From Pristiophorus japonicus (taxonomy: Eukaryota): DNA of 64,000 nucleotides. The stretch lies in the NCBI RefSeq assembly GCF_044704955.1, contig NC_092003.1, positions 7,006,001-7,070,000 of the forward strand, given 5' to 3'. The position numbers and the translations under genes were made by a program. Each line of letters starts with the position of its first letter. The first letter of the stretch is position 1. A model generated the notes under the pieces. The model was not told the origin of the DNA and ran no database searches. It saw only the letters and a program-made list of their open reading frames with translations. This document shows, piece by piece, positions 32,291 through 57,760 of this stretch.

Positions 32291-33384
32291 GCTCTGAGAA
32301 GTTGGATCACGTTCTTCCAACCCCTCTGGTGCATGAAAGCTTGGTGTGCATGTTACAGCGGACATGGTTAAGAGTGGATGAAATCCAAAAGTCACAACAC
32401 TGTCAGTATTCACTTCATACCCAATAAACCTGTTGACAATCCCACACAATGCCCCGTCTGAGGGGTTATGGTCTAGTGCTTGGGTAAGGGTCTTCAGCTG
32501 GCGGAGGATGCACTTACGCTGGGGCAATGGATCAAATTACAAAAGTAGTTCCGTACTTGGGCTGGGCTGTTCCGGTTACACATTCCAGAGGAACTCCAGG
32601 GTGTGTCTTATCCTCCAAGGGGACCAATCGGCAAGAGTTCCGGAGATCCAATCAGAGAGAAAGCTGCATTTCAGTTAGCACAAATAGATGTATCCAATAT
32701 TTATCCCTCAGTCAACATCATTAAAGAGATGATCTGGGTCATTATCACATTGTGTGTGGGAGCTTGCTTTGTGCAAATTGGCTGTTACGTTTCCCACATT
32801 ACAACAGTGACTACTCCTCAAAGGTACTTCATTTGGTGTGAAGCGCTTTGGGACGGCGAGAGGACTTGAAAGGCGCTATGGAAGTGCAAGACTTTTTTGT
32901 TAATCTCATAGAAAATAGGTGCAGGAGTAGGCCATTCAGCCCTTCTGCCACCATTCAATATGATTGTGGCTGATCATTCCCTCAGTGCCCCTTTCCTGCT
33001 TACTCTCCATACCCCTTCATCCCTTTAGCCCTAAGGGCCATATCTAACTCCCTCTTGAATATATCCAATGAACTGGCATCAATAACTGTCGGCGGTAGAG
33101 AATTCCACAGGTTAACAACTCTCTGAGTGAAGAAGTTTCTCCTCATCTCAGTCCTAAATGGTTTACCCCTTATCCTTAGATTATGTCCCCTGCTTCTGGT
33201 GAATCACTCCCAAACGAGATTCCCAGTCTATGGGTAGCAGCAACAGATTTAACTTGTATCCATATATACCTCTGCGGCATACAAAGACAACAACCGATGA
33301 CACGCCCGGAGTGGTAGGGTTTGGACTGCTGCGTGCAGATCTCAGTGGGAGCGGCACTACGCTGGGTCGGCGTCCTTGGGCCAT

Positions 33385-36300
33385 GAGCAAAAAGGGAGGG
33401 TGAACAGCCAGTTGTCGTGGTGCACATTGGTACCAACGATATAGGTTAAAAAAGGGATGAGGTCCTACAAGACGAATTTAAGGAGCTAGGAGCTAAATTA
33501 AAACGTAGGACCTCAAAAGTAGTAATCTCAGGATTGCTTCCAGTGCCACGTGCTAGTCAGAGTAGGAATCGCAGGATAGCTCAGATGAATACGTGGTGCA
33601 GCAGGGAGGGATTCAAATTCCTGGGGCATTGGAACCGGTTCTGGGGGAGGTGGGACCAGTACAAACCGGATGGTCTTCACCAAGGCAGGACCGGAACCAA
33701 TGTCCTAGGGGGAAGTGTTTGCTAGTGCTGTTGGGGAGGAGTTAAACTAATATGGCAGGGGGATGGGAACCAATGCAGGGAGACAGAGGGAAACAAAAAG
33801 GAGACAAAAGCAAAAGACAGCAAGGAGATGAGTAAAAGTGGAGGGCAGAGAAACCCAAGGCAAAAAAAGGGCCACTGAATATAAAGGGGCTGCAGGAGGG
33901 ATCAAAACTAAAAATCATGGTTTAAAAACTAGTATTAAAACACTCTACCTAAACGCACGCAGCATTCAAATAAAGTAAATGAGTTGATGGCACAAATCAT
34001 TACAAATGGGTATGATTTGGTGGCCATTACAGAAACGTGGTTGCAGGGTGGCCAAGACTGGGAATTAAACATACAGGGGTATCTGACGATTCGGAAAGAT
34101 AGACAAGAAGGGAAAGGAGGTGGGGTAGCTCTGTTAATAAAGGATGATATCAGGGCAGTTGTGAGAGATGATATTGGCTCTAATGAACAAAATGTTCAAT
34201 CATTGTGGGTGGAGATTAGAGATAGTAAGGGGAAAAAGTCACTGGTGGGTGTAGTTTATAGGCCCCCAAATAATAACTTCACGGTGGGGAGGGCAATAAT
34301 CAAGGGAATAATGGAGGCATGTGAAAAAGGAACGGCAGTAATCATGGGGGATTTTAACCTACATATCGATTGGTCAAATCAAATCGCAAGGGGTAGCCTT
34401 GAGGAGGAATTCATAGAATGCATACAGGATTGTTTCTTAGAACAGTATGTTACAGAACCTACAAGGGAGCAAGCTATCTTAGATCTGGTCCTGTGTAATG
34501 AGACAGGAATAATAAACGATCTCCTAGTAAAAGATCCTCTCGGAATGAGTGATCACAGTATGGTTGAATTTGTAATACAGATTGAGGGTGAGGAAGTAGT
34601 GTCTCAAACGAGCGTACTATGCTTAAACAAAGGGGACTACAGTGAGATGAGGGCAGAGTTGGCTAAAGTAGACTGGAAACACAGACTAAACGGTGGCACA
34701 ATTGAGGAACAGTGGAGGACTTTTAAGGAGCTCTTTCATAGTGCTCAACAAAAATATATTCCAGTGAAAAAGAAGGGCGGTAAGAGAAGGGATAACCAGC
34801 CGTGGATAACCAAGGAAATAAAGGAGAGTATCAAATTAAAAACTAATGCGTATAAGATGGCCAAGGTTAGTAGGAAAATAGAAGATTGGGAAAATTTTAA
34901 ACAACAGCAAAGAATGACTAAGAAAGCAATAAAGAAAGGAAAGATAGAATACGAAAGTAAACTTGCGCAAAACATAAAAACGGATAGTAAAAGCTTTTAC
35001 AGATATATAAAACGGAAAAGAGTGACTAAAGTAAATGTTGGTCCCTTAGAAGATGAGAAGGGGGATTTAATAATGGGAAATGTGGAAATGGCTGAGACCT
35101 TAAACAATTATTTTGCTTCGGTCTTCACAGTGGAAGACACAAAAACCATGCCAAAAATTGCTGGTCACAGGAATGTGGGAAGGGAGGACCTTGAGACAAT
35201 CACTATCACTAGTGGGGTAGTGCTGGACAGGCTAATGGGACTCAAGGTAGACAAGTCCCCTGGTCCCGATGAAATGCATCCCAGGGTATTAAGAGATGGC
35301 GGAAGTTATAGCAGATGCATTCGTTATAATCTACCAAAATTCTCTGGACTCTGGAGAGGTACCAGCGGATTGGAAAGCAGCTAATGTAACGCCTCTGTTT
35401 AAAAAAGGGGGCAGACAAAAGATAGGTAACTATAGGCCGGTTAGTTTAACATCTGTAGTGGGGAAAATGCTTGAAACTATCATTAAGGAAGAAATAGCGG
35501 GACATCTAGATAGGAATAGTGCAATCAAGCAGACACAGCATGGATTCATGAAGAGGAAATCATGTTTAACTAATTTACTGGAATTCTTTGAGGATATAAC
35601 GAGTATGGTGGATAGAGGTGTACCGATGGATGTGGTGTATTTAGATTTTCAAAAGGCATTCGATAAGGTGCCATACAAAAGGTTACTGCAGAAGATAAAG
35701 GTACGCGGAGTCAGAGGAAATGTATTAGCATGGATCGAGAATTGGCTGGCGAACAAAAAGCAGAGAGTCGGGATAAATGGGTCCTTTTCGGGTTGGAAAT
35801 CGGTGGTTAGTGGTGTGCCACAGGGATCGGTGCTGGGACCACAACTGTTTACAGTATACATAGATGACCTGGAAGAGGGGACAGAGTGTAGTGTAACAAA
35901 ATTTGCAGATGACACAAAGATTAGTGGAAAAGCGGGTTGTGTAGAGGACACAGAGAGGCTGCAAAGAGATTTAGATAGGTTAAGCGAATGGCTAACGTTT
36001 GGCAGACGGAATACAATGTCGGAAAGTGTAAAGTCATCCACCTTGGGGGAAAAAAACAGTAAAAGGGAATATTATTTGAATGGGGATAAATTACAACATG
36101 CTGCGGTGCAGAGGGACCTGGGAGTCCTTGTGAATGAAACTCTTTATCCCAAAAAGTTAGTTTGCAGGTACAGCAGGTAATCAGGAAGGCGAATGGAATG
36201 TTGGCCTTCATTGCGAGAGGGATGGAGTACAAAAGCAGGGAGGTCCTGCTGCAACTGTACAGGGTATTGGTGAGGCCGCACCTGGAGTACTGCGTGCAGT

Positions 36301-36838
36301 TTTGGTCACCTTTCTTAAGGAAGGATATACTGGCTTTGGAGGGGGTACAGAGACGATTCACGAGGCTGATTCCGGAGATAAGGGGGTTACCTTATGATAG
36401 ATTGAGTACACTGGGTCTTTACTCGTTGGAGTTCAGAAGAATGAGGGGTGATCTTACAGAAACATTTAAAATAATGAAAGGGATAGACAAGATAGAGGCA
36501 GAGAGGTTGTTTCCACTGGTCAGGGAGACTAGAACTCGGGGGCACAGCCTCAAAATACGGGGGAGCCAATTTAAAACCGAGTTGAGAAGGAATTTCTTCT
36601 CCCAGAGGGTTGTGAATCTGTGGAATTCTCTGCCCAAGGAAGCAGTTGAGGCTAGCTCATTGAATGTATTCAAGTCACAGATAGATAGATTTTTAACCAA
36701 TAAGGGAATTAAGGGTTACGGGGAGCGGGCGGGTAAGTGGAGCTGAGTCCACGGCCAGATCAGCCATGATCTTGTTGAATGGCGGAGCAGGCTCGAGGGG
36801 CTAGATGGCCTGCTCCTGTTCCGAATTCTTATGTTCCT
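33385..36838 (+). mobile_element. Near-full-length, 5'-truncated CR1 LINE (ORF1 esterase remnant + frameshifted ORF2 + 3' UTR)
   Basis: ORF1 SGNH-like VVVHIGTNDIG at ~33410; APE endonuclease motifs (AITETW, GVVYRPP, MGDFN, ILDLVL, SDH); RT motifs (YLDFQKAFDKV, GVPQGSVLGP, KFADD); frameshifts near 35290 and 36000-36160. Confidence 0.93.
33984..36746 (+). pseudogene. CR1 ORF2 (endonuclease-reverse transcriptase), disrupted into three ORFs
   Basis: ORFs 33984-35384, 35296-36180 and 36162-36746 are consecutive pieces of one pol protein in different frames. Confidence 0.88.
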
Positions 36839-36929
36839 GTCAAGGTGACAATTGGGGACGTTCGGGGAGGATGAGATCGGACGCAGTGTCACTCGGGCGT
36901 GGCGCTCAGCAACGGTGGCAACAGTTCCA

Positions 36930-38175
36930 CGTAGAATCGTAGAAATTTACAGCACGGAAGGAGGCCATCTCGGCCCATCGTGTCCCCGCCGGCCACATGC
37001 GTCAGCCTCTTTGCAAAAGGAGTGGAGCAAGTTGCATTGATATAAAAATGTGAAGTGATACATTTTGGCAGAAAGAATGAGGAGATACGATATAAATTAA
37101 CGGGTACAATTCTAAAGCAGGTGCACAAACAAGAGAGGCCTGGGGGTATATGTGTACACATCGTTGAAGGTGACAGGACAGGTTGAGGAAGTGGTTTTAG
37201 CAAAAAAAAAGCATATGGGATCCTGGACTAAATAAATAGTACAAAAGCAAGGAAGTTGTGATGAATCTTTATAACACAACTGGAGTATTGTGTCCAATTC
37301 TGGGCACCGCACTTTAGGATATACTTGCTTTGGAGGCAGTTCAGAGAAGGTTCACTCGGTTGATTCCGGGGATGAGGGGGTTGACTTCTGAGGGAAGGTT
37401 GAGCAGGTTGGGCCTCTACTCATTGGAATTCAGAAGAAACATAGAAAATAGGTGCAGGAGTAGGCCATTCGGCCCTTCGAGCCTGCACCACCATTCAATA
37501 TGATCATGGCTGATCATGCAACTTCAGTACCCCATTCCCGCTTTCTCTCCATACCCCTTGATTCCTTTAGCCGTAAGGGCCACATCTAACTCCCTTTTGA
37601 ATATATCTAACGAACTGGCCTCAACAACCTTCTGTGGTAGAGAATTCCACAGGTTCACAATTCTCTGAGTGAAGAATGAGAGGTGATCTTATTGAAGCGT
37701 ATAAGATTATGAGGGGGCTCGACAAGATGGATGCAGAGAGGATGTTTCCACTGATGGGGGAGACTAGAACTAGAGGGCATGATCTTCGAATAAGGGGCTG
37801 CCCATTTAAAACTGAGATGAGAAGAAATTTCTTCTCTCAGAGAGTTGTAGATCTGTGGAATTCGCTGCCTCAGAGAGCTGTGGAAGCCGGGACATTGAAT
37901 AAATTTAAGACCGAAATAGACAGTTCCTCTCCGACCCATCCAGGCGATCGACACTAGTCCAGGAGATCACCCTGGCCGTATTCGATTCCCGGCAGTGCTT
38001 TACTATCGTATCTGCGCCGTCCAACAAAAGGTCATCCAGTCTAATCCCAATTACCGGCTCTAGGTCCGTAACCCTGCACTTCAGGTGCCCATCCAAGCAC
38101 CTTTTAAATGTGGCGAGGGTTTCTGCATCTCTTGTAGAGAGCTGGCACAGGCTCTGAGCCGAATGGCCTCCTACT
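36930..38175. mobile_element. Cluster of nested CR1 fragments
   Basis: + CR1 (37025-37922) interrupted by a - CR1 tail (~37437-37675, flanked by AGAA); further short 3' UTR pieces on either side. Confidence 0.7.
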
Positions 38176-38199
38176 GTGCTCGAGCCATTCTATGGTCCT

Positions 38200-38627
38200 A
38201 TACCGTGGGCCGCCCCGACCTGTGTGAGGACACCACCGCAGGTCGGGGCTATCAATAGAGCTGGAGCGCTGGGCCCTGGAACATCATGGTGGAGGTACGG
38301 GGCCCAGAAGAGGCCAGGGGCCCAGGGGCAGCACGGGCCCAGCCCCACACTGTGTGCGATACGTGCGCGCACTGGGTCCGTGCAGCAGAGCTGGTCTCCG
38401 GTCGTCCTGGTTAACCCTTGCCCCTGGACCAAGACCTCGCTCTGTCAAGCCCCGTGTGGTGGCTGGTGTGCAACGGTCACCCCACGTTAAAAAAATCCAC
38501 CCACAGGCACCTTCCACCCTTCAGGATGTAGTTCGGGATCCGGAATATTAGCTCCTTCATTGAAACATCAGTGAACTCTCGTGGAAGCAAGTCATCCTCG
38601 ATCGAGGGCCGGCCTAAGATGATGATG
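38200..38627 (+). mobile_element. RTE-related non-autonomous element
   Basis: Same family as 2085-2540. Confidence 0.6.
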
Positions 38628-38909
38628 GTTCGATACCGCCTTTAAAGTAGTAAAACGTCCCATGGTGCATCACAGCAGCATAATCGGGCAAGACTTGACA
38701 GCGAACCAAAGAAGGAGATATTAGGACAAGTGACTCAAAGTCGAGTGTGGTATGTTTTAAGCAGCATCTTAAATGAGGAATGAGATGATTAGGGCATGAA
38801 TTCCAGAGCTTGAAACTTAGATGGCAGAAGGCACGGCCACCAATGGTGGAGCGAGGGAATGCAGGATGCACAAGAGGCCAGAGTTGGAGGAACGCAGAGA
38901 TCCAGTAAA

Positions 38910-39393
38910 GAAAGAAAAATTTGCATTTATATAGCGCCTTTCACGATCACCAGACGTCTCAAAGCGCTTTACAGCCAATTAAGTACTTTTGGAGTGTGGT
39001 CACTGCTGTAATGTGGGAAACACCAATTTGCGCACAGCAAGCTCCCACACACAGCACTGTGATAATGACCCGGATCATCTGTTTTTTTGTTACATTGATT
39101 GAGGGATAAATATTGGTCCCAGGACACCGGGGAGAACTCCCCCTGCTCTTCTTCGAAATAGTGGCCGTGGGATCTTTTACGTTCACCTGAGAGGGCAGAC
39201 GGGACCTCGGTTTAACGTCTCATTTGAAAGACAGCCCATCCGACAGTGCGGCGCTCCCTCAGTACTGCCCCTCTGACAGTGCGGCGTTCCCTCAGTACTA
39301 CCTCTCCGACAGTGCCCTGCTCCCTCAGTACTGCCCCTCCGACAGTGCAGCGCTCCCTCAGTACTGCCCCTCCGACAGTGCGGCACTCCCTCA
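38910..39393 (-). mobile_element. Deu-domain SINE with ~5 x 33-bp repeat, inserted in an L2 3' fragment
   Basis: Reverse-complement tail, core and array; - strand L2 tail sequence on both sides (~38635-38900, 39394-39480). Confidence 0.75.
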
Positions 39394-39586
39394 GGGGTGG
39401 AGGAGGTTACAGAGATGGGAAGGAACGAGGCTACAGATGGACTTGAGCAAGAGGATGCAAATTTTAGGATTGCAGTTTTGGGGGTGGGGGGTAGCGGAGG
39501 GTGCAGTTCATACATTAATTCCCAACAGCAGCAAGGAAGGAAAGGGCTTTTTTTTTAAACACCTGAAAGCTAATGCTCACAAAAAA

Positions 39587-41064
39587 CTACTGAGGGAGCG
39601 CCGCACTGTCGGAGGGGCGGTACTGAGGGAGTGCCGCACTGTCGGAGGGGCAGTACTGAGGGAGTGCCGCACTGTCGGAGGGGCAGTACTGAGGGAGTGC
39701 CGCACTGTCGGAGGGGCAGTACTGAGGGAGCGCCGCACTGTCGGAGGGGCGGTACTGAGGGAGTGCCGCACTGTCGGAGGGGCAGTACTGAGGGAGCACC
39801 GCACTGTCAGAGGGGCGGTACTGAGGGAGCGCCGCACTGTCGGAGGGGCAGTACTGAGGGAGCGCCGCACTGTCGGAGGGGCGGTACTGAGGGAGTGCCG
39901 CACTGTCGGAGGGGCAGTACTGAGGGAGCGGCGCACTGTCGGAGGGTCAGTACTGAGGGAGCGCCGCACTGTCGGAGGGGCAGTACTGAGGGAGCGCCGC
40001 ACTGTCGGAGGGACAGTACTGAGGGAGCGCCGCACTGTCGGAGGGGCGGTGCTGAGGGAGTGCCGCACTGTCGGAGGGGCGGTGCTGAGGGAGTGCCGCA
40101 CTGTCGGAGGGGCAGTACTGAGGGAGCACCGCACTGTCGGAGGGGCGGTACTGAGGGAGCGCCGCACTGTCGGAGGGGCAGTACTGAGGGAGCGCCGCAC
40201 TGTCGGAGGGACAGTACTGAGGGAGCGCCGCACTGTCGGAGGGGCGGTGCTGAGGGAGTGCCGCACTGTCGGAGGGGCGGTGCTGAGGGAGTGCCGCACT
40301 GTCGGAGGGGCAGTACTGAGGGAGCACCGCACTGTCGGAGGGGCGGTACTAAGGGAGCGCCGCACTGTCGGAGGGACGGTACTGAGGGAGTGCCGCACTG
40401 TCGGAGGGATGTACTGAGGGAGCGCCGCACTGTCGGAGGGGCAGTACTGAGGGAGCACCGCACTGTCGGAGGGGCGGTACTGAGGGAGCGCCGCACTGTC
40501 GGAGGGACAGTACTGAGGGAGCACCGCACTGTCGGAGGGGCAGTACTGAGGGAGCGCCGCACTGTCAGAGGGACAGTACTGAGGGAGCGCCGCACTGTCG
40601 GAGGGGCGGTGCTGAGGGAGTGCCGCACTGTCGGAGGGGCGGTGCTGAGGGAGTGCCGCACTGTCGGAGGGGCAGTACTGAGGGAGCACCGCACTGTCGG
40701 AGGGGCGGTACTGAGGGAGCGCCGCACTGTCGGAGGGACGGTACTGAGGGAGTGCCGCACTGTCGGAGGGATGTACTGAGGGAGCGCCGCACTGTCGGAG
40801 GGGCAGTACTGAGGGAGCGCCGCACTGTCGGAGGGGCGGTGCTGAGGGAGTGCTGCACTGTCGGAGGGGCAGTACTGAGGGAGCACCGCACTGTCGGAGG
40901 GGCAGTACTGAGGGAGCGCCGCACTGTCGGAGGGGCGGTACTGAGGGAGCACCGCACTGTCGGAGGGGCAATACTGAGGGAGCGCCGCACTGTCGGAGGG
41001 GCGGTACTGAGGGAGCACCGTACTGTCAGAGGGGCGGTACTGAGGGAGCGCCGCATTGTCGGAG
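39587..41064 (+). repeat. SINE-derived 33-bp minisatellite (~45 units)
   Basis: Tandem GAGGGAGYGCCGCACTGTCGGAGGGGCRGTACT. Confidence 0.95.
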
Positions 41065-41189
41065 GTGCCGTCTCCCAGGTGACACATTAATCTGAGGTCC
41101 TCTCGGATGGATGTAAAAAGATCCCTTGGCCACTATTGGAAGAAGACCAGAGAGAGGTGTGCTGGGCCAATATTTATCCCTCCACCAAG

Positions 41190-41392
41190 TGTCGTGTGTG
41201 TACATGCTGTTTGTAGCCACCAGATGGCGTCATTGTTGGAGGCCACTGAACAGCACGCACGTGCTGCTGCTCTGGTATAAAAGGCCAGCGATTTGGTGAG
41301 TCAGGCACTTTGGGTCGTAATAAAGCAGAGCCAAGGGTGTACCTTGTTCAGTTAAACAGCACTCAGTTTGAACCTTTATTGCGTACATAACA
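41190..41392 (+). mobile_element. Solo LTR with CTCF-like motif, inserted in a Deu SINE (further copies start at 43642, 45230, 47158)
   Basis: TGTCGTG...CATAACA ends; imperfect TSD CCAAG/CCAAC; TATAAAA and AATAAA; CCACCAGATGGCGTC at 41217. Confidence 0.7.
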
Positions 41393-41840
41393 CCAACATC
41401 GCTAAAACAGATGATGCATTCTCATTATCACAGGGCTGTTTGTGGGAGCTTGCTGTGCGCAAATTGGCCGCCGCCTTTCCTACATTACAACAGCGACGAC
41501 ACTTAAGTACTTGATCACTTTGGGACACCATGAAACGGGCTAATTAAAGCAAAACCTTTTACATTAAAAAAAATCTCAATTGTACCTTATATATAAACTA
41601 ACATTGAATGCCGACCGTACAAATATAAAATGACACTTCAACAGTTTATGCTGTTGTGTTTCAGTAGTAATATATATATATATATATATATGCACCCGGG
41701 GGTGAAATAAATTGCTTGGCAGTGGGTGGGGATAATGTCGCTTTAAAAATGGTCTTCAATTAAAGGCAAACTGAGAGACAAGAGCTGGAAGGGTTTCGGT
41801 TCCGGGTTAGCTGGGGGAAAGTTCAATTCGCTGATTAAAC

Positions 41841-41879
41841 ATGGCAGCTACAAGGAGCCCAGATAGCAGCAGCAGTAAG
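41841..41879 (+). CDS. CCS: Putative CCS coding exon 1, copy 1 (MAATRSPDSSSSK)
   Basis: AAACATGG Kozak context; 39 nt, phase 0; donor AAG|GTATGG; in frame with exon 2; same coding length as I recall for mammalian CCS exon 1. Confidence 0.55.
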
Positions 41880-44288
41880 GTATGGGCTATCCTCGGGCAC
41901 GATAAAGTGCTTATCTGTATCCCTTGCTGCATAGTTTACAATGCATGTGCTTTTGCAAACAGGAAAGTACAATTAAAAGCACATTCCGTGTTTGATCGAG
42001 TCTAGAATTGAATTGCTTGCTCTTTGTCACTTTCTGTTTCTGCTGTGCCTCTGTTTTCAACACAATCGGCCTCTTGTCTCTCGAGTTCCTTTTTGTTTTC
42101 ATTACCGTGGTTTTAGCAAGGTAGAAAAACAATTTCAAGCCCCATATCTGCCACCGGGGCAGCCGGTTGTTACTCAGTCGTTGGGCTTTTCTGTGAAATT
42201 CTGGGGCTTTCGAATGTTTTCTGTGGAATTGTGACGAGTCATGGTTTGCACAAGGTGGCCCAGCTGATACGGATACAGCCAGCTCGTGTTAACAGACTTG
42301 AGCGCGATAATCCAGGCCGACACGTCCCACTGCAGTGCTGAGGGAGCGCCACACTGTCGGAGGGGCAGTACTGAGGGAGGGCCACACTGTCAGAAGGGCG
42401 GTACTGAGGGAGTGCCGCACTGTCGGAGGGGCAGTACTGAGGGAGTGCCGCACTGTCGGAGGGGCAGTACTGAGGGAGGGCCACACTGTCGGAGGGGCGG
42501 TACTGAGGGAGCGCCGCACTGTCGGAGGGGCAGTACTGAGGGAGTGCCGCACTGTCGGAGGGGCAGTACTGAGGGAGTGCCGCACTGTCGGAGGGGCGGT
42601 ACTGAGGGAGCACCGCACTGTCGGAGGGGCGGTACTGCGGGAGCGCCGCACTGTCGGAGGGGCGGTACTGAGGGAGCGCCGCACTGTCGGAGGTGCGGTA
42701 CTGAGGGAGCGCCGCACTGTCGGAGGGGCGGTACTGAGGGAGCGCCGCACTGTCGGAGGGGCAGTACTGAGGGAGCGCCGCACTGTCGGAGGGACAGTAC
42801 TGAGGGAGTGCCGCACTGTCGGAGGGGCAGTACTGAGGGAGCGGCGCACTGTCGGAGGGACAGTACTGAGGGAGCACCGCACTGTCGGAGGGGCAGTACT
42901 GAGGGAGCGCCGCACTGTCGGAGGGGCGGTACTGAGGGAGCGCCGCACTGTCGGAGGGACAGTACTGAGGGAGCACCGCACTGTCGGAGGGGCAGTACTG
43001 AGGGAGCGCCGCACTGTCAGAGGGACAGTACTGAGGGAGCGCCGCACTGTCGGAGGGGCGGTGCTGAGGGAGTGCCGCACTGTCGGAGGGGCGGTGCTGA
43101 GGGAGTGCCGCACTGTCGGAGGGGCAGTACTGAGGGAGCACCGCACTGTCGGAGGGGCGGTACTGAGGGAGCGCCGCACTGTCGGAGGGACGGTACTGAG
43201 GGAGTGCCGCACTGTCGGAGGGATGTACTGAGGGAGCGCCGCACTGTCGGAGGGGCGGTACTGAGGGAGCGCCGCACTGTCGGAGGGGCGGTGCTGAGGG
43301 AGTGCTGCACTGTCGGAGGGGCAGTACTGAGGGAGCACCGCACTGTCGGAGGGGCAGTACTGAGGGAGCGCCGCACTGTCGGAGGGGCGGTACTGAGGGA
43401 GCACCGCACTGTCGGAGGGGCAATACTGAGGGAGCGCCGCACTGTCGGAGGGGCGGTACTGAGGGAGCACCGTACTGTCAGAGGGGCGGTACTGAGGGAG
43501 CGCCGCATTGTCGGAGGTGCCGTCTCCCAGGTGACACATTAATCTGAGGTCCTCTCGGATGGATGTAAAAAGATCCCTTGGCCACTATTGGAAGAAGACC
43601 AGAGAGAGGTGTGCTGGGCCAATATTTATCCCTCCACCAAGTGTCGTGTGTGTACATGCTGTTTGTAGCCACCAGATGGCGTCATTGTTGGAGGCCACTG
43701 AACAGCACGCACGTGCTGCTGCTCTGGTATAAAAGGCCAGCGATTTGGTGAGTCAGGCACTTTGGGTCGTAATAAAGCAGAGCCAAGGGTGTACCTTGTT
43801 CAGTTAAACAGCACTCAGTTTGAACCTTTATTGCGTACATAACACCAACATCGCTAAAACAGATGATGCATTCTCATTATCACAGGGCTGTTTGTGGGAG
43901 CTTGCTGTGCGCAAATTGGCCGCCGCCTTTCCTACATTACAACAGCGACGACACTTAAGTACTTGATCACTTTGGGACACCATGAAACGGGCTAATTAAA
44001 GCAAAACCTTTTACATTAAAAAAAATTTCAATTGTACCTTATATATAAACTAACATTGAATGCCGACCGTACAAATATAAAATGACACTTCAACATTTTA
44101 TACTGTTGTGTTTCAGTAGTAATATATATATATATATATGCACCCGGGGGAGAAATAAATTGCTTGGCAGTGGGTGGGGATAATGTCGCTTTAAAAATGG
44201 TCTTCAATTAAAGGCAAACTGAGAGACAAGAGCTGGAAGGGTTTCGGTTCCGGGTTAGCTGGGGGAAAGTTCAATTCGCTGATTAAAC

Positions 44289-44327
44289 ATGGCAGCTACA
44301 AGGAGCCCAGATAGCAGCAGCAGTAAG
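44289..44327 (+). CDS. CCS: Putative CCS coding exon 1, copy 2
   Basis: Identical 39 nt and donor. Confidence 0.55.
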
Positions 44328-45882
44328 GTATGGGCTATCCTCGGGCACGATAAAGTGCTTATCTGTATCCCTTGCTGCATAGTTTACAATGCATGTGCTT
44401 TTGCAAACAGGAAAGTACAATTAAAAGCACATTCCGTGTTTGATCGAGTCTAGAATTGAATTGCTTGCTCTTTGTCACTTTCTGCTTCTGCTGTGCCTCT
44501 GTTTTCAACACAATCGGCCTCTTGTCTCTCGAGTTCCTTTTTGCTTTCATTACCGTGGTTTTAGCAAGGTAGATAAACAATTTCAAGCCCCATATCTGCC
44601 ACCGGGGCAGCCGGTTGTTACTCAGTCGTTGGGCTTTTCTGTGAAATTCTGGGGCTTTCGAATGTTTTCTGTGGAATTGTGACGAGTCATGGTTTGCACA
44701 AGGTGGCCCAGCTGATACGGATACAGCCAGCTCGTGTTAACAGACTTGAGCGCGATAATCCAGGCCGACACGCCCCACTGCAGTGCTGAGGGAGCGCCAC
44801 ACTGTCGGAGGGGCAGTACTGAGGGAGCGCCGCACTGTCGGAGGGATGTACTGAGGGAGGGCCACACTGTCGGAGGGGCGGTACTGCGGGAGCGCCGTAC
44901 TGTCGGAGGGATGTACTGAGGGAGCGCCGCACTGTCGGAGGGGCGGTACTGAGGGAGTGCCGCACTGTCGGAGGGATGTACTGAGGGAGCGCCGCACTGT
45001 CGGAGGGGCAGTACTGAGGGAGCGCCGCACTGTCGGAGGGGCGGTACTGAGGGAGCGCCGCACTGTCGGAGGGACGGTACTGAGGGAGTGCCGCACTGTT
45101 GGAGGTGCCGTCTACCAGGTGACACGTTAATCTGAGGCCCTCTCGGATGGATGTAAAACGATCCCTTGGCCACTATTGGAAGAAGACCAGAGAGAGGTGT
45201 GCTGGGCCAATATTTATCCCTCCACCAAGTGTCGTGTGTGTACATGCTGTTTGTAGCCACCAGATGGCGTCATTGTTGGAGGCCACTGAACAGCACGCAC
45301 ATGCTGCTGCTCTGGTATAAAAGGCCAGCGATTTGGTGAGTCAGGCACTTTGGGTCGTAATAAAGCAGAGCCAAGGGTGTACCTTGTTCAGTTATACAGC
45401 ACTCAGTTTGAACCTTTATTGCGTACATAACACCAACATCGCTAAAACAGATGATGCATTCTCATTATCACAGGGCTGTTTGTGGGAGCTTGCTGTGCGC
45501 AAATTGGCCGCCGCCTTTCCTACATTACAACAGCGACGACACTTAAGTACTTGATCACTTTGGGACACCATGAAACGGGGTAATTAAAGCAAAACCTTTT
45601 ACATTAAAAAAAATCTCAATTGTACCTTATATATAAACTAACATTGAATGCCGACCGTACAAATATAAAATGACACTTCAACATTTTATACTGTTGTGTT
45701 TCAGTAGTAATATATATATATATATATATATATGCACCCGGGGGAGAAATAAATTGCTTGGCAGTGGGTGGGGATAATGTCGCTTTAAAAATGGTCTTCA
45801 ATTAAAGGCAAACTGAGAGACAAGAGCTGGAAGGGTTTCGGTTCCGGGTTAGCTGGGGGAAAGTTCAATTCGCTGATTAAAC

Positions 45883-45921
45883 ATGGCAGCTACAAGGAGC
45901 CCAGATAGCAGCAGCAGTAAG
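45883..45921 (+). CDS. CCS: Putative CCS coding exon 1, copy 3
   Basis: Identical 39 nt and donor. Confidence 0.55.
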
Positions 45922-47806
45922 GTATGGGCTATCCTCGGGCACGATAAAGTGCTTATCTGTATCCCTTGCTGCATAGTTTACAATGCATGTGCTTTTGCAA
46001 ACAGGAAAGTACAATTAAAAGCACATTCCGTGTTTGATCGAGTCTAGAATTGAATTGCTTGCTCTTTGTCACTTTCTGCTTCTGCTGTGCCTCTGTTTTC
46101 AACACAATCGGCCTCTTGTCTCTCGAGTTCCTTTTTGCTTTCATTACCGTGGTTTTAGCAAGGTAGAAAAACAATTTCAAGCCCCATATCTGCCACCGGG
46201 GCAGCCGGTTGTTACTCAGTCGTTGGGCTTTTCTGTGAAATTCTGGGGCTTTCGAATGTTTTCTGTGGAATTGTGACGAGTCATGGTTTGCACAAGGTGG
46301 CCCAGCTGATACGGATACAGCCAGCTCGTGTTAACAGACTTGAGCGCGATAATCCAGGCCGACACGCCCCACTGCAGTGCTGAGGGAGCGCCGCACTGTC
46401 GGAGGGGCAGTACTGAGGGAGCGCCACACTGTCGGAGGGATGTACTGAGGGAGCGCCGCACTGTCGGAGGGGCAGTACTGAGGGAGCGCCGCACTGTCGG
46501 AGGGGCAGTACTGAGGGAGGGCCACACTGTCGGAGGGACGGTACTGCGGGAGAGCCGTACTGTCGGAGGGATGTACTGAGGGAGCGCCGCACTGTCGGAG
46601 GGGCAGTACTGAGGGAGGGCCACACTGTCGGAGGGGCGGTACTGCGGGAGCGCCGCACTGTCGGAGGGGCAGTACTGAGGGAGGGCCACACTGTCGGAGG
46701 GGCGGTACTGCGGGAGAGCCGTACTGTCGGAGGGATGTACTGAGGGAGCGCCGCACTGTCGGAGGGACGGTACTGAGGGAGTGCCGCACTGTCGGAGGGA
46801 TGTACTGAGGGAGCGCCGCACTGTCGGAGGGGCAGTACTGAGGGAGCGCCGCACTGTCGGAGGGGCGGTGCTGAGGGAGTGCCGCACTGTCGGAGGGGCG
46901 GTGCTGAGGGAGTGCTGCACTGTCGGAGGGGCAGTACTGAGGGAGCACCGCACTGTCGGAGGGGCAGTACTGAGGGAGCACCGCACTGTCGGAGGGGCGG
47001 TACTGAGGGAGCGCCGCACTGTCGGAGGGACGGTGCCGTCTACCAGGTGACACGTTAATCTGAGGCCCTCTCGGATGGATGTAAAAAGATCCCTTGGCCA
47101 CTATTGGAAGAAGACCAGAGAGAGGTGTGCTGGACCAATATTTATCCCTCCACCAAGTGTCGTGTGTGTACATGCTGTTTGTAGCCACCAGATGGCGTCA
47201 TTGTTGGAGGCCACTGAACAGCACGCACGTGCTGCTGCTCTGGTATAAAACGCCAGCGATTTGGTGAGTCAGGCACTTTGGGTCGTAATAAAGCAGAGCC
47301 AAGGGTGTACCTTGTTCAGTTATACAGCACTCAGTTTGAACCTTTATTGCGTACATAACACCAACATCGCTAAAACAGATGATGCATTCTCATTATCACA
47401 GGGCTGTTTGTGGGAGCTTGCTGTGCGCAAATTGGCCGCCGCCTTTCCTACATTACAACAGCGACGACACTTAAGTACTTGATCACTTTGGGACACCATG
47501 AAACGGGGTAATTAAAGCAAAACCTTTTACATAAAAAAAAATCTCAATTGTACCTTATATATAAACTAACACTGAATGCCGACCGTACAAATATAAAATG
47601 ACACTTCAACATTTTATACTGTTGTGTTTCAGTAGTAATATATATATATATATATATGCACCCGGGGGAGAAATAAATTGCTTGGCAGTGGGTGGGGATA
47701 ATGTCGCTTTAAAAATGGTCTTCAATTAAAGGCAAACTGAGAGACAAGAGCTGGAAGGGTTTCGGTTCCGGGTTAGCTGGGGGAAAGTTCAATTCGCTGA
47801 TTAAAC

Positions 47807-47845
47807 ATGGCAGCTACAAGGAGCCCAGATAGCAGCAGCAGTAAG
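47807..47845 (+). CDS. CCS: Putative CCS coding exon 1, copy 4 (closest to exon 2)
   Basis: Identical 39 nt and donor; 1265-nt intron to exon 2. Confidence 0.65.
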
Positions 47846-48254
47846 GTATGGGCTATCCTCGGGCACGATAAAGTGCTTATCTGTATCCCTTGCTGCATAG
47901 TTTACAATGCATGTGCTTTTGCAAACAGGAAAGTACAATTAAAAGCACATTCCGTGTTTGATCGAGTCTAGAATTGAATTGCTTGCTCTTTGTCACTTTC
48001 TGTTTCTGCTGTGCCTCTGTTTTCAACACAATCGGCCTCTTGTCTCTCGAGTTCCTTTTTGTTTTCATTACCGTGGTTTTAGCAAGGTAGAAAAACAATT
48101 TCAAGCCCCATATCTGCCACCGGGGCAGCCGGTTGTTACTCAGTCGTTGGGCTTTTCTGTGAAATTCTGGGGCTTTCGAATGTTTTCTGTGGAATTGTGA
48201 CGAGTCATGGTTTGCACAAGGTGGACCAGCTGATACGGATACAGCCAGCTCGTG

Positions 48255-49000
48255 TAAACAGACTTGAGCGCGATAATCCAGGCCGACACGCCCCACTGCA
48301 GTGCTGAGGGAGCGCCGCACTGTCGGAGGGGCGGTACTGCGGGAGCACCGTACTGTCGGAGGGATGTACTGAGGGAGCGCCGCACTGTCGGAGGGACGGT
48401 ACTGAGGGAGCGCCGCACTGTCGGAGGGGCAGTACTGAGGGAGCGCCGCACTGTCGGAGGGGCAGTACTGAGGGAGCGCCGCACTGTCGGAGGGGCAGTA
48501 CTGAGGGAGCGCCGCACTGTCGGAGGGGCAGTACTGAGGGAGCGCCGCACTGTCGGAGGGGCAGTACTGAGGGAGCGCCGCACTGTCGGAGGGGCAGTAC
48601 TGAGGGAGCGCCGCACTGTCGGAGGGGCAGTACTGAGGGAGCGCCGCACTGTCGGAGGTGCCGTCTTTCAGATGAGACATTAAACCGAGGCCCCGTCTGC
48701 CCTCATAAAAAATCCCACGGCACTATTTGAAGAAGAGCCGGGGGAGTTCTCCCCGGTGTATTGGGGGCAATATTTATTCCTCAGTCAATATAACCTTAAA
48801 AAAACAGATGATCCGGGTCATTATCACATTGCTGTTTGTGGGAGCTTGCTGTGCGCAAATTGGCTGCCGGGTTTCTCACCAGATGGGTTTTCACAACAAT
48901 TGGGTAGTTTCATAGTCACCATTACCCTCCAAAAGTACCTCATTGGCTGTAAAGCCCTTTGGGAGGTCGTGAAAGGTGCTTTATAAATGGAAGTCTTTGT
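48255..49000 (+). mobile_element. Deu-domain SINE with ~11 x 33-bp repeat (CCS intron 1)
   Basis: Head remnant, array at 48301-48660, and its own Deu core/tail, distinct from the one in the duplicated blocks. Confidence 0.8.
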
Positions 49001-49110
49001 GTGGTTCGGTGTCAAATTCTTTTTGTCTGATAATCGCTCCTGTGAAACGCCTTTGGACGTTTCACGAGATTAAAGGGGCCACCTAAATGCAAGTTCTTGT
49101 TTGGTTTCAG

Positions 49111-49183
49111 TTGGAGTTTGCGGTGCAGATGACCTGTGAGAGCTGTGCCAATGCTGTCCGAAACGCCCTGACTGGAGTTGATG
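49111..49183 (+). CDS. CCS: Copper chaperone for superoxide dismutase, exon 2 (HMA/Atx1-like domain, MXCXXC)
   Basis: TTGGTTTCAG|LEFAVQMTCESCANAVRNALTGVD G|GTAGGT; 73 nt. Confidence 0.92.
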
Positions 49184-49329
49184 GTAGGTCCCGACCTGAG
49201 ATTGTTCACCCTCTCTCTCTGTGAGCCGATTTAAAAAAAGCTCGCTTCATCTCCCCTGCACTGAGCCCTTACTGGGAGTCAGGTCACGGTGGCACCCACT
49301 GCCCTTGGTCCCCTCACAAGAGCACAAAA

Positions 49330-52300
49330 CAATCGGAGCAGGAGTCGGCCATTTGGCCCCTCGAGCCATGCAGAAGCCGGGACCTTGAATAAATTTAAGG
49401 CAACAGATAGACAGTTTCTTAACCGATAAGGGTATATGGGCATCAGGCGGGGAAGTGGACCTGAGTCCATGATCAGATCAGCCATGATCGTATTAAATGG
49501 CGGAGCAGGCCCGAGGGGCCGTATGGCTTACTCCTGCTCCTATTTCTTGTGTTCTTATGGCTGATCTGATCATGGGCTCAGCTCCACTTCCCCGCCCGCT
49601 CCCCATAACCCTTCACTCCCTTCTCGCTCAAAAATCTGTCGACATCTCCGCCTTGAATATATTCAATGACCCGGCCTCCACAGCTCTCTGGGGCAGAGAA
49701 TTCCACAGATTTACAACCCTCTGAGAGAAGAAATTCCTCCTCATCTCAGTTTTAAATGGACGGCCCTTTATTCTGAGACTATGTCCCCTAGTTTTAGTTT
49801 CCCCTATGAGTGGAAATATCCTCTCTGCATCCACCTTGTCCAGCCCCCTCATTATCTTATATGTTTCGATAAGATCACCTCTCTCTCATCTGAATTCCAA
49901 TGAGTAGAGGCCCAACCTACTCAACTCATCTTCATAAGTCAACCCCCTCATCCCCGGAACCAACCTAGTGAACCTTCTCTGAACAGCCTCCAATGCGAGT
50001 ATATCCTTAAATACGGAGACCAAAACTGTACGCAGTACTCCAGGTGTAGCCTCACCTATACCCTGTACAGTTGTAGCAGGACTTCTCTGCTTTTATATTC
50101 TATCCCCCTTGCAATAAAGGCCAACATTCCATTTGCCTTCCTGATCACTTGCTGTACCTGCATACTAACTTTTTGTGTTTCATACACAAGGACCCCCAGG
50201 TCCCTCTGTACTGCAGCACTTTGCAATTTCTCTCCATTTAAGTAATAATTTTCTTTTCTATTTTTTCTGCCAAAGTGGATAACCTCACATTTTCCCACAT
50301 TATACTCCATCTGTCAAATTTTTGCCCACTCACTTAGCCTGTCTGTATCCCTTTTTTTGTGTCCTCCTCACAATTTGCTTTTCCTCCCATCTTTGTATCA
50401 TCAGCAAACTTGGCTACAATACACTCGGTCCCTTCATCCAAGTCATTAATATAGATTGTAAATAGTTGGGGTCCCAGCACTGATCCCTGCGGCACCCCAC
50501 TAGTTACTGTTTGCCAACCTGAGAATGAACCATTTATCCCGACTCTCTGTTTTCTGTTAGTTAGCCAATCCGCTATCCATGCTAATATATTACCCCCAAC
50601 CCCGTGAACTTTTATCTTGTGCAGTAACCTTTTATGTGGCAGATGAAGTATAATGTGGATAAATGTGAGGTTATCCACTTTGGTGGTAAAAACAGAGAGA
50701 CAGACTATTATCTGAATGGTGACAGATTAGGAAAAGGGGAGGTGCAACAAGACCTGGTTGTCATGCTACATCAGTCATTGAAGGTTGGCATGCAGGTACA
50801 GCAGGCGGTTAAGAAAGCAAATGGCATGTTGGCCTTCATAGCGAGGGGATTTGAGTACAGGGGCAGGGAGGTGTTGCTACAGTTGTACAGGGCCTTGGTG
50901 AGGCCACACCTGGAGTATTGTGTACAGTTTTGGTCTCCTAATTTGAGGAAGGACATTCTTGCTATTGAGGGAGCGCAGCGAAGGTTCACCAGACTGATTC
51001 CCGGGATGGTGGGACTGACCTATCAAGAAAGACTGGATCAACTGGGCTTGTATTCACTGGAGTTCAGAAGAATGAGAGGGGACCTCATAGAAACGTTTAA
51101 AATTCGGACGGGTTTAGACAGGTTAGATGCAGGAAGAATGTTCCCAATGTTGGGGAAGTCCAGAACCAGGGGTCACAGTCTGAGGATAAGGGGTAAGCCA
51201 TTTAGGACCGAGATGAGGAGAAACTTCTTCACCCAGAGAGTGGTGAACCTGTGGAATTCTCTACCACAGAAAGTTGTTGAGGCCAATTCACTAAATATAT
51301 TCAAAAAGGAGTTAGATGAAGTCCTTACTACTAGGGGGATCAAGGGGTATGGCGAGAAAGCAGGAATGGGGTACTGAAGTTGCATGTTCAGTCATGAACT
51401 CATTGAATGGCGGTGCAGGCTAGAAGGGCCGAATGGCCTACTCCTGCACCTATTTTCTATGTTTCTATGTTTTTCTATGTTATCAAATGCTTTCTGGAAA
51501 TCCAAATACACCACATCCACTGGTTCCCCCTTATCCACCCTGTTCATTACATCCTCAAAGAACTCCAGCAAATTTGTCAAACGTGATTACCCTTTCATAA
51601 AACCGTGCTGACTCTGCTTGATTGAATCATGCTTTTCCAAGTGTCCTGCTACTGCTTCCTTAATAATGAACTCCAACATTTTCCCAATGACAGTTGTTAG
51701 GCTAACTGGTCTATAGTTACCTGCTTTCTGTCTGCCTCCTTTTTTAAATAGGGGCGTTACATTTGCAGTTTTTCAAATCCAGGGAATTTTGGTAAATTCT
51801 CTGCAGACACTTCTTTTTAAGACCTGTGGTGACCGAGGCGTGGACTGAGTGATATACAAGGTCGACACTCAAGTAGAGTCGACAGACTTCGCGATGTGGT
51901 TCAAAACGGTTTATTCGCAGGCCTGGGAAGAGAGCGATCGAGACCCGTTCTCGGACTCTCAACTTCGCAGTTAAATCTAAGTGACAGCATTATATACCTT
52001 TTTAGTACAAGCTTATCTCGCAGGCAAAGCCTGCATCTCATCATTTGTTTGAACGAAAGCATTGTGTGTCTTGAACATTCTTTTCGAGTTACATTTTATC
52101 TTGTACAGATGGTAACCGTGTCCTTCTCAAGGCCTTACCTGCTCGAATGTTTCGCGATTATTATATCACTGCTAGTTTTGTTGCTTTTGGTTTTAGTTTT
52201 TGCAAGTTAGCATAATTATTATGAGGATTGATACAGTGCTTTCTCCAGCCCAGCTTCCAGACATAGGTTTAAATGATCCCAGGCTATGCACCTTACTTTG

Positions 52301-54019: not shown

Positions 54020-54157
54020 GAATCCAGTCGGTGGATATAAATCTGAGCACGGAGCAAGTTCTCGTCGACACCACGCTGACGTCGGGGCAAGTGCAAGCAC
54101 TGATCGAGAACACGGGGAGACGGGCTGTGCTTAAAGGGATGGGCCCGGCCTCTCTCA
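54020..54157 (+). CDS. CCS: Copper chaperone for superoxide dismutase, exon 3
   Basis: TTTGCAG|(G)IQSVDINLSTEQVLVDTTLTSGQVQALIENTGRRAVLKGMGPASL A|GTAAGT; 138 nt, phase 1-1. Confidence 0.92.
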
Positions 54158-54203
54158 GTAAGTACAACAGCCTGTACCTGCCCTGGGAGTGTTTGATGGG
54201 ACA

Positions 54204-55637
54204 TAGAAAGATAGAAAATAGGTGCAGGAGTAGGCCATTCAGCCCTTCTAGCCTGCACCGCCATTCAATGAGTTCATGGCTGAACATGCAACTTCAGTAC
54301 CCCATTCCTGCTTTCTCACCATACCCCTTGATCCCCCGAGTAGTAAGGACTTCATCTAACTCCCTTTTGAATATATTTAGTGAATTGGCCTCAACTACTT
54401 TCTGTGGTAGAGAATTCCACAGGTTCACCACTCTCTGGGTGAAGAAGTTTCTCCTCATCTCGGTCCTAAATGGCTTACCCCTTATCCTTAGACTGTGACC
54501 CCTGGTTCTGGACTTCCCCAACATTGGGAACATTCTTCCTGCATCTAACCTGTCTAAACCCGTCCGAATTTTAAACGTTTCTATGAGGTCCCCTCTCATT
54601 CTTCTGAACTCCAGTGAATACAAGCCCAGTTGATCCAGTCTTTCTTGATAGGTCAGTCCCGCCATCCCGGGAATCAGTCTGGTGAATCTTCGCTGCACTC
54701 CCTCAATAGCAAGAATGTCCTTCCTCAAGTTAGGAGACCAAAACTGTATACAATACTCCAGGTCTGGCCTCACCAAGGCCCTGTACAACTGTAGCAACAC
54801 CTCCCTGCCCCTGTACTCAAATCCCCTCGCTATGAAGGCCAACATGCCATTTGCTTTCTTAACCACCTGCTGTACCTGCATGCCAACCTTCAATGACTGA
54901 TGAACCATGACACCCAGGTCTCGTTGCACCTTCCCTTTTCCTAATCTGTCACCATTCAGATAATAGTCTGTCTCTCTGTTTTTACCACCAAAGTGGATAA
55001 CCTCACATTTATCCACATTATACTTCATCTGCCACGCATTTGCCCACTCACCTAACCTATCCAAGTCACTCTGCAGCCTCATAGCATCCTCCTCGCAGCT
55101 CACACTGCCACCCAACTTAGTGTCATCCGCAAATTTGGAGATACTACATTTAATCCCCTCGTCTAAATCATTAATTTACAGTGTAAACAGCTGGGGCCCC
55201 AGCACAGAACCTTGCGGTACCCCACTAGTCACTGCCTGCCATTCTGAAAAGTACCCATTTACTCCAACTCTTTGCTTCCTGTCTGACAACCAGTTCTCAA
55301 TCCATGTCAGCACACTACCCCCAATCCCATGTGCTTTAACTTTGCACATTAATCTCTTGTGTGGGACCTTGTCGAAAGCCTTCTGAAAGTCCAAATATAC
55401 CACATCAACTGGTTCTCCCTTGTCCACTCTACTGGTAACATCCTCAAAAAATTCCAGAAGATTTGTCAAGCATGATTTCCCTTTCACAAATCCATGCTGA
55501 CTTGGACCTATCATGTCACCATTTTCCAAATGCGCTGCTATGACATCCTTAATAATTGATTCCATCATTTTACCCACTACTGAGGTCAGGCTGACCGGTC
55601 TATAATTCCCTGTTTTCTCTCTCCCTCCTTTTTTAAA
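54204..55637 (-). mobile_element. Young CR1 LINE 3' 1.4 kb, inserted into the 68-bp satellite
   Basis: ORFs 55176-55577 and 54294-55115 (RT and C-terminus); flanking duplication ATGGGACA at 54196-54203 / 55638-55645. Confidence 0.9.
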
Positions 55638-57741
55638 ATGGGACAGAGTAGAGGGAGATTTACTCTGTAACTAACCCCGTGCTGTACCTGCCCTGGGAGT
55701 GTTTGATGGGACAGTGTAGAGGGAGCTTTACTCTGTATCTAACCCCGTGCTGTACCTGCCCTGGGAGTGTTTGATGGGACAGTATGGAGGGAGCTTTACT
55801 CTGTATCTAACCCCGTGCTGTACCTGCCCTGGGAGAGTGTGATGGGACAGTGTAGAGGGAGCTTTACTCTGTATCTAACCCCGTGCTGTACCTGCCCTGG
55901 GAGTGTCTGATGGGACAGTGTAGAGGGAGCTTTACTCTGTATCTAACCCCCTATACCTGCCCTGGGAGTGTTTGATGGGACGGTGTAGAGGGAGCTTTAC
56001 TCTGTATCTAACCCCCTGTACCTGCCCTGGGAGTGTTTGATGGGACAGTGTCGAGGGAGATTTACTCTGTATCTAACCCCGTGCTGTACCTGGCCTGGGA
56101 GTGTTTGATGGGACAGTGTAGAGGGAGCTTTACTCTGTATCTAACCCCGTGCTGTACCTGCCCTGGGAGTGTTTGATGGGACAGTGTAGAGGGAGCTTTA
56201 CTCTGTATCTAAACCCATGCTGTACCTGCCCTGGGAGTGTTTGATGGGACAGTGTAGAGGGAGCTTTACTCTGTATCTAACCCCCTGTACCTGCCCTGGG
56301 AGTGTTTGATGGGACAGTGTAGAGGGAGCTTTACTCTGTATCTAAACCCATGCTGTACCTGCCCTGGGAGTGTTTGATGGGACAGTGTAGAGGGAGCTTT
56401 ACTCTGTATCTAACCCCGTGCTGTACCTGCCCTGGGAGAGTGTGATGGAACAGTGTAGAGGGAGCTTTACTCTGTATCTAACCCCGTGCTGTACCTGCCC
56501 TGGGAGTGTGTGATGGGACAGTGTAGAGGGAGCTTTACTCTGTATCCAACCCCCTGTACCTGCCCTGGAGTGTTTGATGGGCAGTGTAGAGGGAGCTTTA
56601 CTCTGTATCTAACCCCCTGTACCTGCCCTGGGAGTGTTTGATGGGACAGTGTAGAGGGAGCTTTACTCTGTATCTAACCCCCTGTACCTGCCCTGGGAGT
56701 GTGTGATGGGACAGTGTAGAGGGAGCTTTACTATGTATCTAACCCCCTGTACCTGCCTTGGGAGTGTTTGATGGGACAGTGTAGAGGGAGCTTTACTCTG
56801 TATCTAACCCCGTGCTGCACCTGCCCTGGGAGTGTTTGATGGGATAGTGTAGAGGGAGCTTTACTCTATATCTAACCCCGTGCTGTACCTGCCCTCGGAG
56901 TGTTTGATGGGACAGTGTAGAGGGAGCTTTACTCTGTATCTAACCCCCTGTACCTGCCCTGGGTGTGTGTGATGGGACAGTGTAGAGGGAGCTTTACTCT
57001 GTATCTAACCCCGTGCTATATCTGCCCTGGGAGTGTTTGATGGGACAGTGTAGAGGGAGCTTTACTCTGTATCTAACCCCGTGCTGTACCTGCCCTGGGA
57101 GTGTGTGATGGGACAGTGTAGAGGGAGCTTTACTCTGTATCTAACCCCCTGTACCTGCCCTGGGGTGTGTGATGGGACAGTGTAGAGGGAGCTTTATTCT
57201 GTATCTAACCCCCTGTACCTGCCCTGGGAGTGTGTGATGGGACAGTGTAGAGGGAGCTTTACTCTGTATCTAACCCCGTGCTGTACCTGCCCTGGGAGTG
57301 TGTGATGGGACAGTGTAGAGGGAGCTTTACTCTGTATCTAACCCCCTGTACCTGCCCTGGGGTGTGTGATGGGACAGTGTAGAGGGAGCTTTATTCTGTA
57401 TCTAACCCCCTGTACCTGCCCTGGGAGTGTGTGATGGGACAGTGTAGAGGGAGCTTTACTCTGTATCTAACCCCGTGCTGTACCTGCCCTGGGGGTGTTT
57501 GATGGGACAGTGTAGAGGGAGCTTTACTCTGTATCTAACCCCGTGCTGTACCTGCCTGGGAGTGTTTGATGGGACAGTGTAGAGGGAGCTTTACTCTGTA
57601 TCTAACCCCGTGCTGTACCTGCCCTGGGGGTGTTTGATGGGACAGTGTAGAGGGAGCTTTACTCTGTATCTAACCCCCTGTACCTGCCCTGGGAGTGTGT
57701 GATGGGACAGTGTCGAGGGAGCTTTACTCTCTATCTAACCC
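55638..57741 (+). repeat. 68/65-bp minisatellite (~31 units) filling CCS intron 3
   Basis: GGGACAGTGTAGAGGGAGCTTTACTCTGTATCTAACCCC(GTG)CTGTACCTGCCCTGGGAGTGTTTGAT; a partial unit also at 54172-54203. Confidence 0.95.
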
Positions 57742-57760
57742 ACGTGCCATTTCCCTGTAG

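Follow-up and report, generated by a model that had tools for sequence, protein, structure and literature searches.

Four tandem copies of the first coding exon and 5′ region of CCS in the shark Pristiophorus japonicus

The 5′ end of CCS, which encodes the copper chaperone for SOD1, was found to be repeated four times in tandem in the genome of the sawshark Pristiophorus japonicus; the repeated part comprises a presumed promoter and the first coding exon and lies upstream of an exon 2 that occurs once. CCS is described as maturing SOD1 (PMC6383938). The stretch of DNA that was analysed (the window) comprises 64,000 nt, positions 7,006,001-7,070,000 of the forward strand of contig NC_092003.1 in assembly GCF_044704955.1; coordinates below are positions within it. 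The combined data suggest, at what we judge to be about an even chance, that the repeat is a tolerated, near-neutral local tandem amplification of a CCS 5′ module, with a less-than-additive effect and a probably variable copy number.

Four copies of CCS exon 1 ahead of a single exon 2

A 39-nt exon that begins with ATG and is followed by a GTATGG donor is present in four identical copies (starting at 41841, 44289, 45883 and 47807), and exon 2 (49111-49183) is present once, downstream of all four. This arrangement had been proposed in an original prediction, and all of its positions were verified in the window. Each copy lies in a block of about 1.27 kb, and the blocks were indeed as nearly identical as predicted, with 21 substitution sites over 1263 ungapped columns (0.63-1.19% in pairwise comparisons) and a (TA)n tract as the sole indel among them. 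Because 1.27 kb is shared at about 99% identity, a chance origin of the repeat is excluded. Each block opens with the 3′ body of one short interspersed nuclear element (SINE)-like copy (SINE-a), which carries a long terminal repeat (LTR)-like insert. A unique stretch of 284 bp leads on to exon 1, after which come about 400 bp of unique intron and, at the end, the 5′ part of another SINE-like copy (SINE-b). Since the 33-bp arrays between the blocks vary in length, ATG-to-ATG spacing is unequal (2448, 1594 and 1924 bp); the repeated units, four in number, measure 1.6-2.4 kb each and all contain the coding exon.

41065-42331 (+): block 1, with the 3′ body of SINE-a, LTR-like insert, unique upstream DNA, exon 1, start of intron 1 and 5′ part of SINE-b
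41841-41879 (+): CCS coding exon 1, copy 1; 13 codons, phase 0; exon 2 is 7231 nt away
43517-44779 (+): block 2, a mosaic whose 5′ part is like block 1 (1 difference) and whose 3′ part is like block 3 (1 difference)
44289-44327 (+): CCS coding exon 1, copy 2; exon 2 is 4783 nt away
45105-46373 (+): block 3
45883-45921 (+): CCS coding exon 1, copy 3; exon 2 is 3189 nt away
47033-48297 (+): block 4
47807-47845 (+): CCS coding exon 1, copy 4; exon 2 is 1265 nt away

When the translation of exon 3 was searched against longer proteins, 19 of 46 candidates matched, and the best match, at 100% identity, was CCS isoform X1 of P. japonicus itself; 11 of the 19 matches, every one of them named, were aligned. 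Residues 1-163 of the annotated P. japonicus CCS (P0001) map to five exons, with exon 1 found four times and exons 2-5 once each within the window: residues 1-13 equal the repeated exon exactly, at four genomic places, and are followed by exon 2. The P0001 model may come from the same assembly, and independent support for exon 1 is provided by orthologs. In 6 of 7 other elasmobranch models, a short homologous MAA...SK segment precedes LEFAVQ; the seventh model starts in exon 2. By these protein comparisons, the repeated exon is the true, orthologous coding exon 1 of CCS, and the doubt that the original prediction had expressed over its identity was settled in the prediction's favour. Also as predicted, the four exons, being identical in sequence, would encode the same N-terminus and are phase-compatible with exon 2.

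49111-49183 (+): CCS exon 2, 73 nt, HMA domain with MTCESC, single copy
54020-54157 (+): CCS exon 3, 138 nt
57761-57938 (+): CCS exon 4, 178 nt, start of the SOD-like domain
62249-62309 (+): CCS exon 5, 61 nt

PF00403 (HMA) matched exons 2 and 3, each match falling under the whole-protein cut-off because the domain is split over the two exons, and PF00080 (SOD-like domain II) matched exon 4 with E=4e-10. P0001 ends at residue 224 without the C-terminal CXC domain III, which the other ten aligned models contain; this region lies past the end of the window, and the absence of the domain may reflect a gap in the assembly or a true loss. Other first exons were sought by an ATG-to-donor, phase-0 scan of 29646-49110, which returned 10 candidates; 6 lay elsewhere than the four copies, and none of these resembled shark CCS N-termini. 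In-frame sequence upstream of the exon was also considered as a Mustelus-type N-terminal extension and set aside, the resemblance being weak (PG background 9%).

The only run of N in the window (29446-29645) lies 11 kb upstream of the repeat, and no gap separates the copies. Blocks 1-4 carry 4, 2, 3 and 5 private single-nucleotide polymorphisms (SNPs), respectively, a further 7 SNPs are shared 2:2, and none of 7 homopolymer runs has an indel between blocks. These four versions bear out the earlier argument that differences among the copies speak against a simple assembly echo. Because four distinct gapless sequences exceed the two alleles of a diploid single-copy locus, at least one haplotype carries at least two copies, and the presence of at least two copies on one chromosome is thus robust. 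The count itself could be inflated if, for example, blocks 1 and 2 were two haplotypes joined inside an array, leaving two or three copies per chromosome. No two blocks are closer to each other than 1 and 2 (0.63%), and the arrays upstream of these two agree over 607 bp with 1 mismatch. False heterotype duplications are reported to remain in long-read assemblies, where most of them lie on one scaffold (PMC9516828). However, false duplications are mostly described as two haplotypes, usually separated by a gap and reduced in depth (PMC9516828), whereas here gaps are absent, four sequences exceed two alleles, and the homopolymer runs argue against error-type inflation. We therefore regard an inflated count as quite improbable.

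Origin of the repeated unit

The original prediction had overlooked that the arrays are part of a dispersed SINE-like element, that each block contains a 203-bp insert, and that the blocks are recombinant mosaics of each other. Arrays of the 33-bp family are found at 11 places in the 64-kb window; at the 6 places outside the repeat, they sit within a dispersed SINE-like element of ~400-450 bp, of which an unexpanded copy is found at 31441-31690. Two distinct copies of this element in the same orientation, SINE-a and SINE-b, flank exon 1, such that the block start matches the element's 3′ body and the block end its 5′ part. As listed below, a SINE-a body follows each of arrays A0-A3, and a different body, that of SINE-b, follows A4, once. 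The two bodies are just 74% identical, whereas the 106 full-length array units have a mean identity of 96% to the modal unit; the arrays are therefore the only long homology of high identity between the two elements.

39588-41064 (+): array A0, ~45 units of 33 bp, expanded interior of SINE-a, whose 5′ head is missing
42332-43516 (+): junction array A1, ~36 units; its final 607 bp equal the end of A0 save for 1 mismatch
44780-45104 (+): junction array A2, ~10 units
46374-47032 (+): junction array A3, ~20 units
48298-48658 (+): array A4, ~11 units, interior of the intronic SINE-b
48659-49000 (+): 3′ body of SINE-b, present once; 74% identity with its SINE-a counterpart in the blocks
41190-41392 (+): 203-bp solo-LTR-like insert in SINE-a, TG...CA, 4-bp flanking duplication, TATAAAA at 41276, AATAAA at 41319
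43642-43844, 45230-45432 and 47158-47360 (+): remaining copies of the 203-bp LTR-like insert

The SINE-like element looks like the shark DeuSINE SacSINE1, a tentative name, as no consensus for comparison was found in the searched parts of PMC5499810, PMC4824008 and PMC5804259. A- and B-box-like motifs were recognized by eye in intact copies; ARAGORN returned 0 tRNA genes and Rfam 0 hits in 39000-49500. Another SINE-like copy with a short array lies in inverted orientation at 38915-39394, about 190 bp ahead of A0. The flanking duplication of the LTR-like insert is 4 bp long, the fifth base being different, and the insert of copy 4 has one substitution after TATAAAA. Its layout of TG...CA, TATA and then a poly(A) signal is common to four other LTR-like elements in the window. 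These elements, at 3081, 53676 and 60679 (+) and at 61996 (-), share a CCACCAGAGGG-type word, a TATA box and a poly(A) signal, and the one at 61996 is likewise nested within a SINE-like copy. A CCACCAGATGG motif in the insert, which resembles a CTCF site, was considered as the basis of a protocadherin-like reading; this was dropped, as further LTR-like elements also contain the motif.

Each of the three new junctions is located within a 33-bp array. Direct homologous repeats thus bound the unit at both ends with the junctions inside them, which is the arrangement that unequal crossing-over would leave, and the repeat apparently originated by unequal crossing-over between arrays. Five SNP sites, all in the 5′ part of the blocks, group blocks 1 and 2 against blocks 3 and 4, and two sites, both in the 3′ part, group blocks 1 and 4 against blocks 2 and 3. 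Because these partitions conflict, and because A1 ends like A0, a single exchange or conversion does not suffice; copy number therefore probably varies between chromosomes.

The simplest ancestor would have had, in order, an array, the SINE-a body, a single exon 1, the SINE-b head, an array, the SINE-b body and exon 2, a 33-bp minisatellite having expanded within each of the two same-orientation SINE-like insertions. Once these two arrays misaligned, unequal crossing-over would have duplicated all of the intervening DNA; four mosaic copies could then have arisen through further exchange or through gene conversion.

Promoter status and competing explanations

Three tests of constraint were fixed beforehand, and all were null. 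Exon plus donor are free of SNPs, as expected by chance at this divergence (P(no SNP)=0.47); the interval from -150 to +50 around the ATG has 1 SNP compared with 3.3 expected (p=0.13); and SNPs in repeat-derived versus unique block sequence gave p=0.38. Neither the exon nor the 137 nt preceding it has a SNP; differences between the copies begin at -138 on the upstream side, and on the intron side they are located at +196, +255, +285, +418, +449 and +484. CpG positions were changed at 2 of 88 in the blocks versus 6 of 30 in a control pair of long interspersed nuclear element (LINE)-like sequences with equal non-CpG divergence (Fisher p=0.003). The control is an inverted 835-bp pair, 97.6% identical, at 50636-51470 and 54201-55035, flanking exon 3. 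The lack of CpG hypermutation in the blocks is as expected for DNA that would be unmethylated and promoter-like. The block is not a CpG island, in that the observed/expected CpG ratio (o/e) is 0.60 around exon 1 and 58 of 139 background windows are as high. TTCCGG, an ETS-like motif, lies 41 nt before the ATG. The TATA box of the LTR-like insert was rejected as a productive start, unless its transcripts are spliced, with 9 upstream ATGs lying between it and the CCS ATG.

The original prediction had read the array as four alternative promoters, a copy-number "dial" that could change CCS expression without duplication of the gene. In a functional dial, the four copies would fire about additively, the CCS level would follow copy number, and selection would keep the array. 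Every copy has an intact exon, ATG context and donor, a 333-bp core is free of SNPs across the blocks, block CpGs lack hypermutation, and the array may be millions of years old; moreover, a tandem duplication of the CYP19A1 promoter alone has been linked to aromatase excess (PMC4162655). However, intact 39-nt exons are expected by chance at this divergence, the tests fixed beforehand were null, and read-through repressed every tested downstream promoter in a human cell system (PMC6994850). Because the constraint tests were null and tandem promoters often interfere, we find the proposed dial unsupported, and we consider it unlikely.

Introns running from the copies to exon 2 would measure 1.3-7.2 kb, and those from the upstream copies (3.2-7.2 kb) are like introns 2-4 (4.8, 3.6 and 4.3 kb). 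Transcripts from upstream copies must pass two AATAAA signals in each downstream block, with none between donor 4 and exon 2. A single copy might accordingly be productive: either copy 4 alone, if transcripts from copies 1-3 are cut short at the sense AATAAA of the next LTR-like insert (43771, 45359 and 47287; 1.0-1.9 kb past donors 1-3), or copy 1 alone, by occlusion of the others. Initiation in a human construct with tandem promoters came from the proximal one only, but both promoters were active when the construct was shortened (PMC3463601). Introns 2 and 4, however, already carry sense LTR-like elements with A(A/T)TAAA (53676 and 60679), and the annotated protein spans both. We hold a single productive copy to be doubtful, about as much so as the dial.

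CCS could also start farther upstream via a non-coding exon, for instance in a CpG-rich island (29650-30950) 11 kb upstream to which no gene is assigned. In that case the repeated exon would be an internal one, with an acceptor 172 nt before the ATG, and duplication would tend to lower CCS through exons containing stops. The island has a GC content of 0.62, an o/e of 0.87 and donor-like sites at 29725 and 30595, whereas the block itself, as noted above, is not an island; the acceptor has 12 of 17 pyrimidines, as for exons 3 and 4. On the other hand, an internal exon from this acceptor would contain three upstream ATGs and, if joined behind another copy, would open with two stops. The island, moreover, is directly preceded by the 200-N gap and by another gene's end and might be unrelated to CCS, and the ETS-like motif so close to the ATG argues against a distant start. 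This possibility seems very unlikely.

Taken together, the data lead us to favour a tolerated duplication over a dosage dial, a single productive copy, an inflated count or a far-upstream start. Tolerance would follow because, whichever copy initiates, its phase-0 donor can be spliced to the sole exon 2 and the same protein results. Several copies probably fire, and total output would stay under four-fold because of read-through and intronic poly(A) signals. Selection would not be required, since a by-product of recombination explains the structure without any function. What the sequence shows is the structure, the identity of the exon, the position of the junctions and the mosaicism; the crossover mechanism, the position of the promoter, polymorphism, activity and neutrality are inferred.

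Some observations weigh against a tolerated, near-neutral duplication. The 333-bp stretch over the ATG is free of SNPs with p about 0.013, a value to be read with the interval having been chosen after the fact and SNPs not being independent; it hints at constraint or at recent conversion. The CpG comparison has one control pair, and errors would likewise lack a CpG excess. A divergence of 0.6-1.2% corresponds to 3-6 or 20-37 million years by two rates quoted in PMC5499810, and, with the 7e-10 per generation given for the epaulette shark (PMC10587355), to 4.5-8.5 million generations, rough figures given that these rates may not apply beside a minisatellite. The array need not be recent, and if the rates apply, strict neutrality is hard to square with an unstable array having lasted so long.

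Neighbouring features and comparison with known systems

An RBM4-like gene (ATG at 20114; RRM, RRM and zinc knuckle) lies on the + strand upstream of CCS, in the region 15646-29000; human RBM4 is also near CCS. Head-to-head with it is a minus-strand gene with a probable ATG at 19437, a zinc knuckle and ~46 copies of a 42-bp coding repeat (15972-17889). A 2.1-kb array of a 68-bp unit (55638-57747) stops 13 nt short of the exon 4 acceptor, so that the branch point region of exon 4 must lie in or at the edge of this array. A second minisatellite (56-57 bp) is expanded at four dispersed sites (24910, 26468, 58855 and 62512) with similar flanks, which suggests that the same in-element expansion may have occurred in another repeat family.

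No report of the CCS-locus duplication was found among the matches listed in open-access literature on the species, on shark CCS duplication and on promoter-plus-first-exon duplications. The analysis shows no consequence for the biology of CCS or SOD1 as such; through its copy-specific SNPs, the locus does offer a natural test of whether native promoters in tandem sum their activities, obstruct one another or become silent. Arrays of this kind number 11 in 64 kb, and the mechanism may be widespread in this genome. It is a much bolder and rather unlikely proposition that minisatellites expanding in an abundant shark SINE are a genome-wide engine multiplying promoter and first-exon modules, with CCS as a copy-variable, multi-start gene whose output scales with copies, at the earliest stage of a variable-first-exon cluster, when its exons have yet to diverge.

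Non-allelic homologous recombination between dispersed Alu-type repeats leaves flanks in direct orientation and chimeric junctions, and the CCS unit is likewise flanked by direct-orientation homologous repeats with chimeric junctions. It differs in that the two SINE bodies, at 74% identity, have diverged too far, and a minisatellite expanded inside each supplies the homology.

The CYP19A1 duplication has non-coding first exons and spans tens of kilobases. As in this promoter-only duplication of aromatase excess syndrome (PMC4162655), the 5′ region of CCS is multiplied and exons 2-5 are single in the window; for CYP19A1, an output that is regulated but higher was proposed (PMC4162655). The CYP19A1 allele is rare, two-copy and associated with disease, whereas the CCS arrangement stands in a reference genome and comprises four units of 1.6-2.4 kb, each containing a coding exon.

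SacSINE1 is an abundant shark DeuSINE of about 400-460 bp with a tRNA-like head (PMC5499810, PMC4824008). The element at the CCS locus is of similar length and, by eye, has A-/B-box-like motifs in intact copies; the portions of those two papers describing SacSINE1 do not mention an internal 33-bp expansion.

N-terminal substitutions derived from tandem exon duplication, a class in which the duplicated 5′ coding exons have alternative promoters, number 39 human cases and include PLEC-type, protocadherin and UGT variable first exons (PMC8373072). As in that class, CCS has tandem homologous 5′ coding exons of the same phase before shared exons. Exons of the described class have diverged, encode different N-termini and are mostly old, whereas those of CCS are identical, species-recent and contained in repeat-bounded modules. 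The architecture is thus known already, both from duplicated first exons and from CYP19A1; what is new is that the exons are identical and the origin is apparently repeat-driven, and this one locus shows how duplicated first exons can begin, as identical exons, via repeats grown in two SINE copies.

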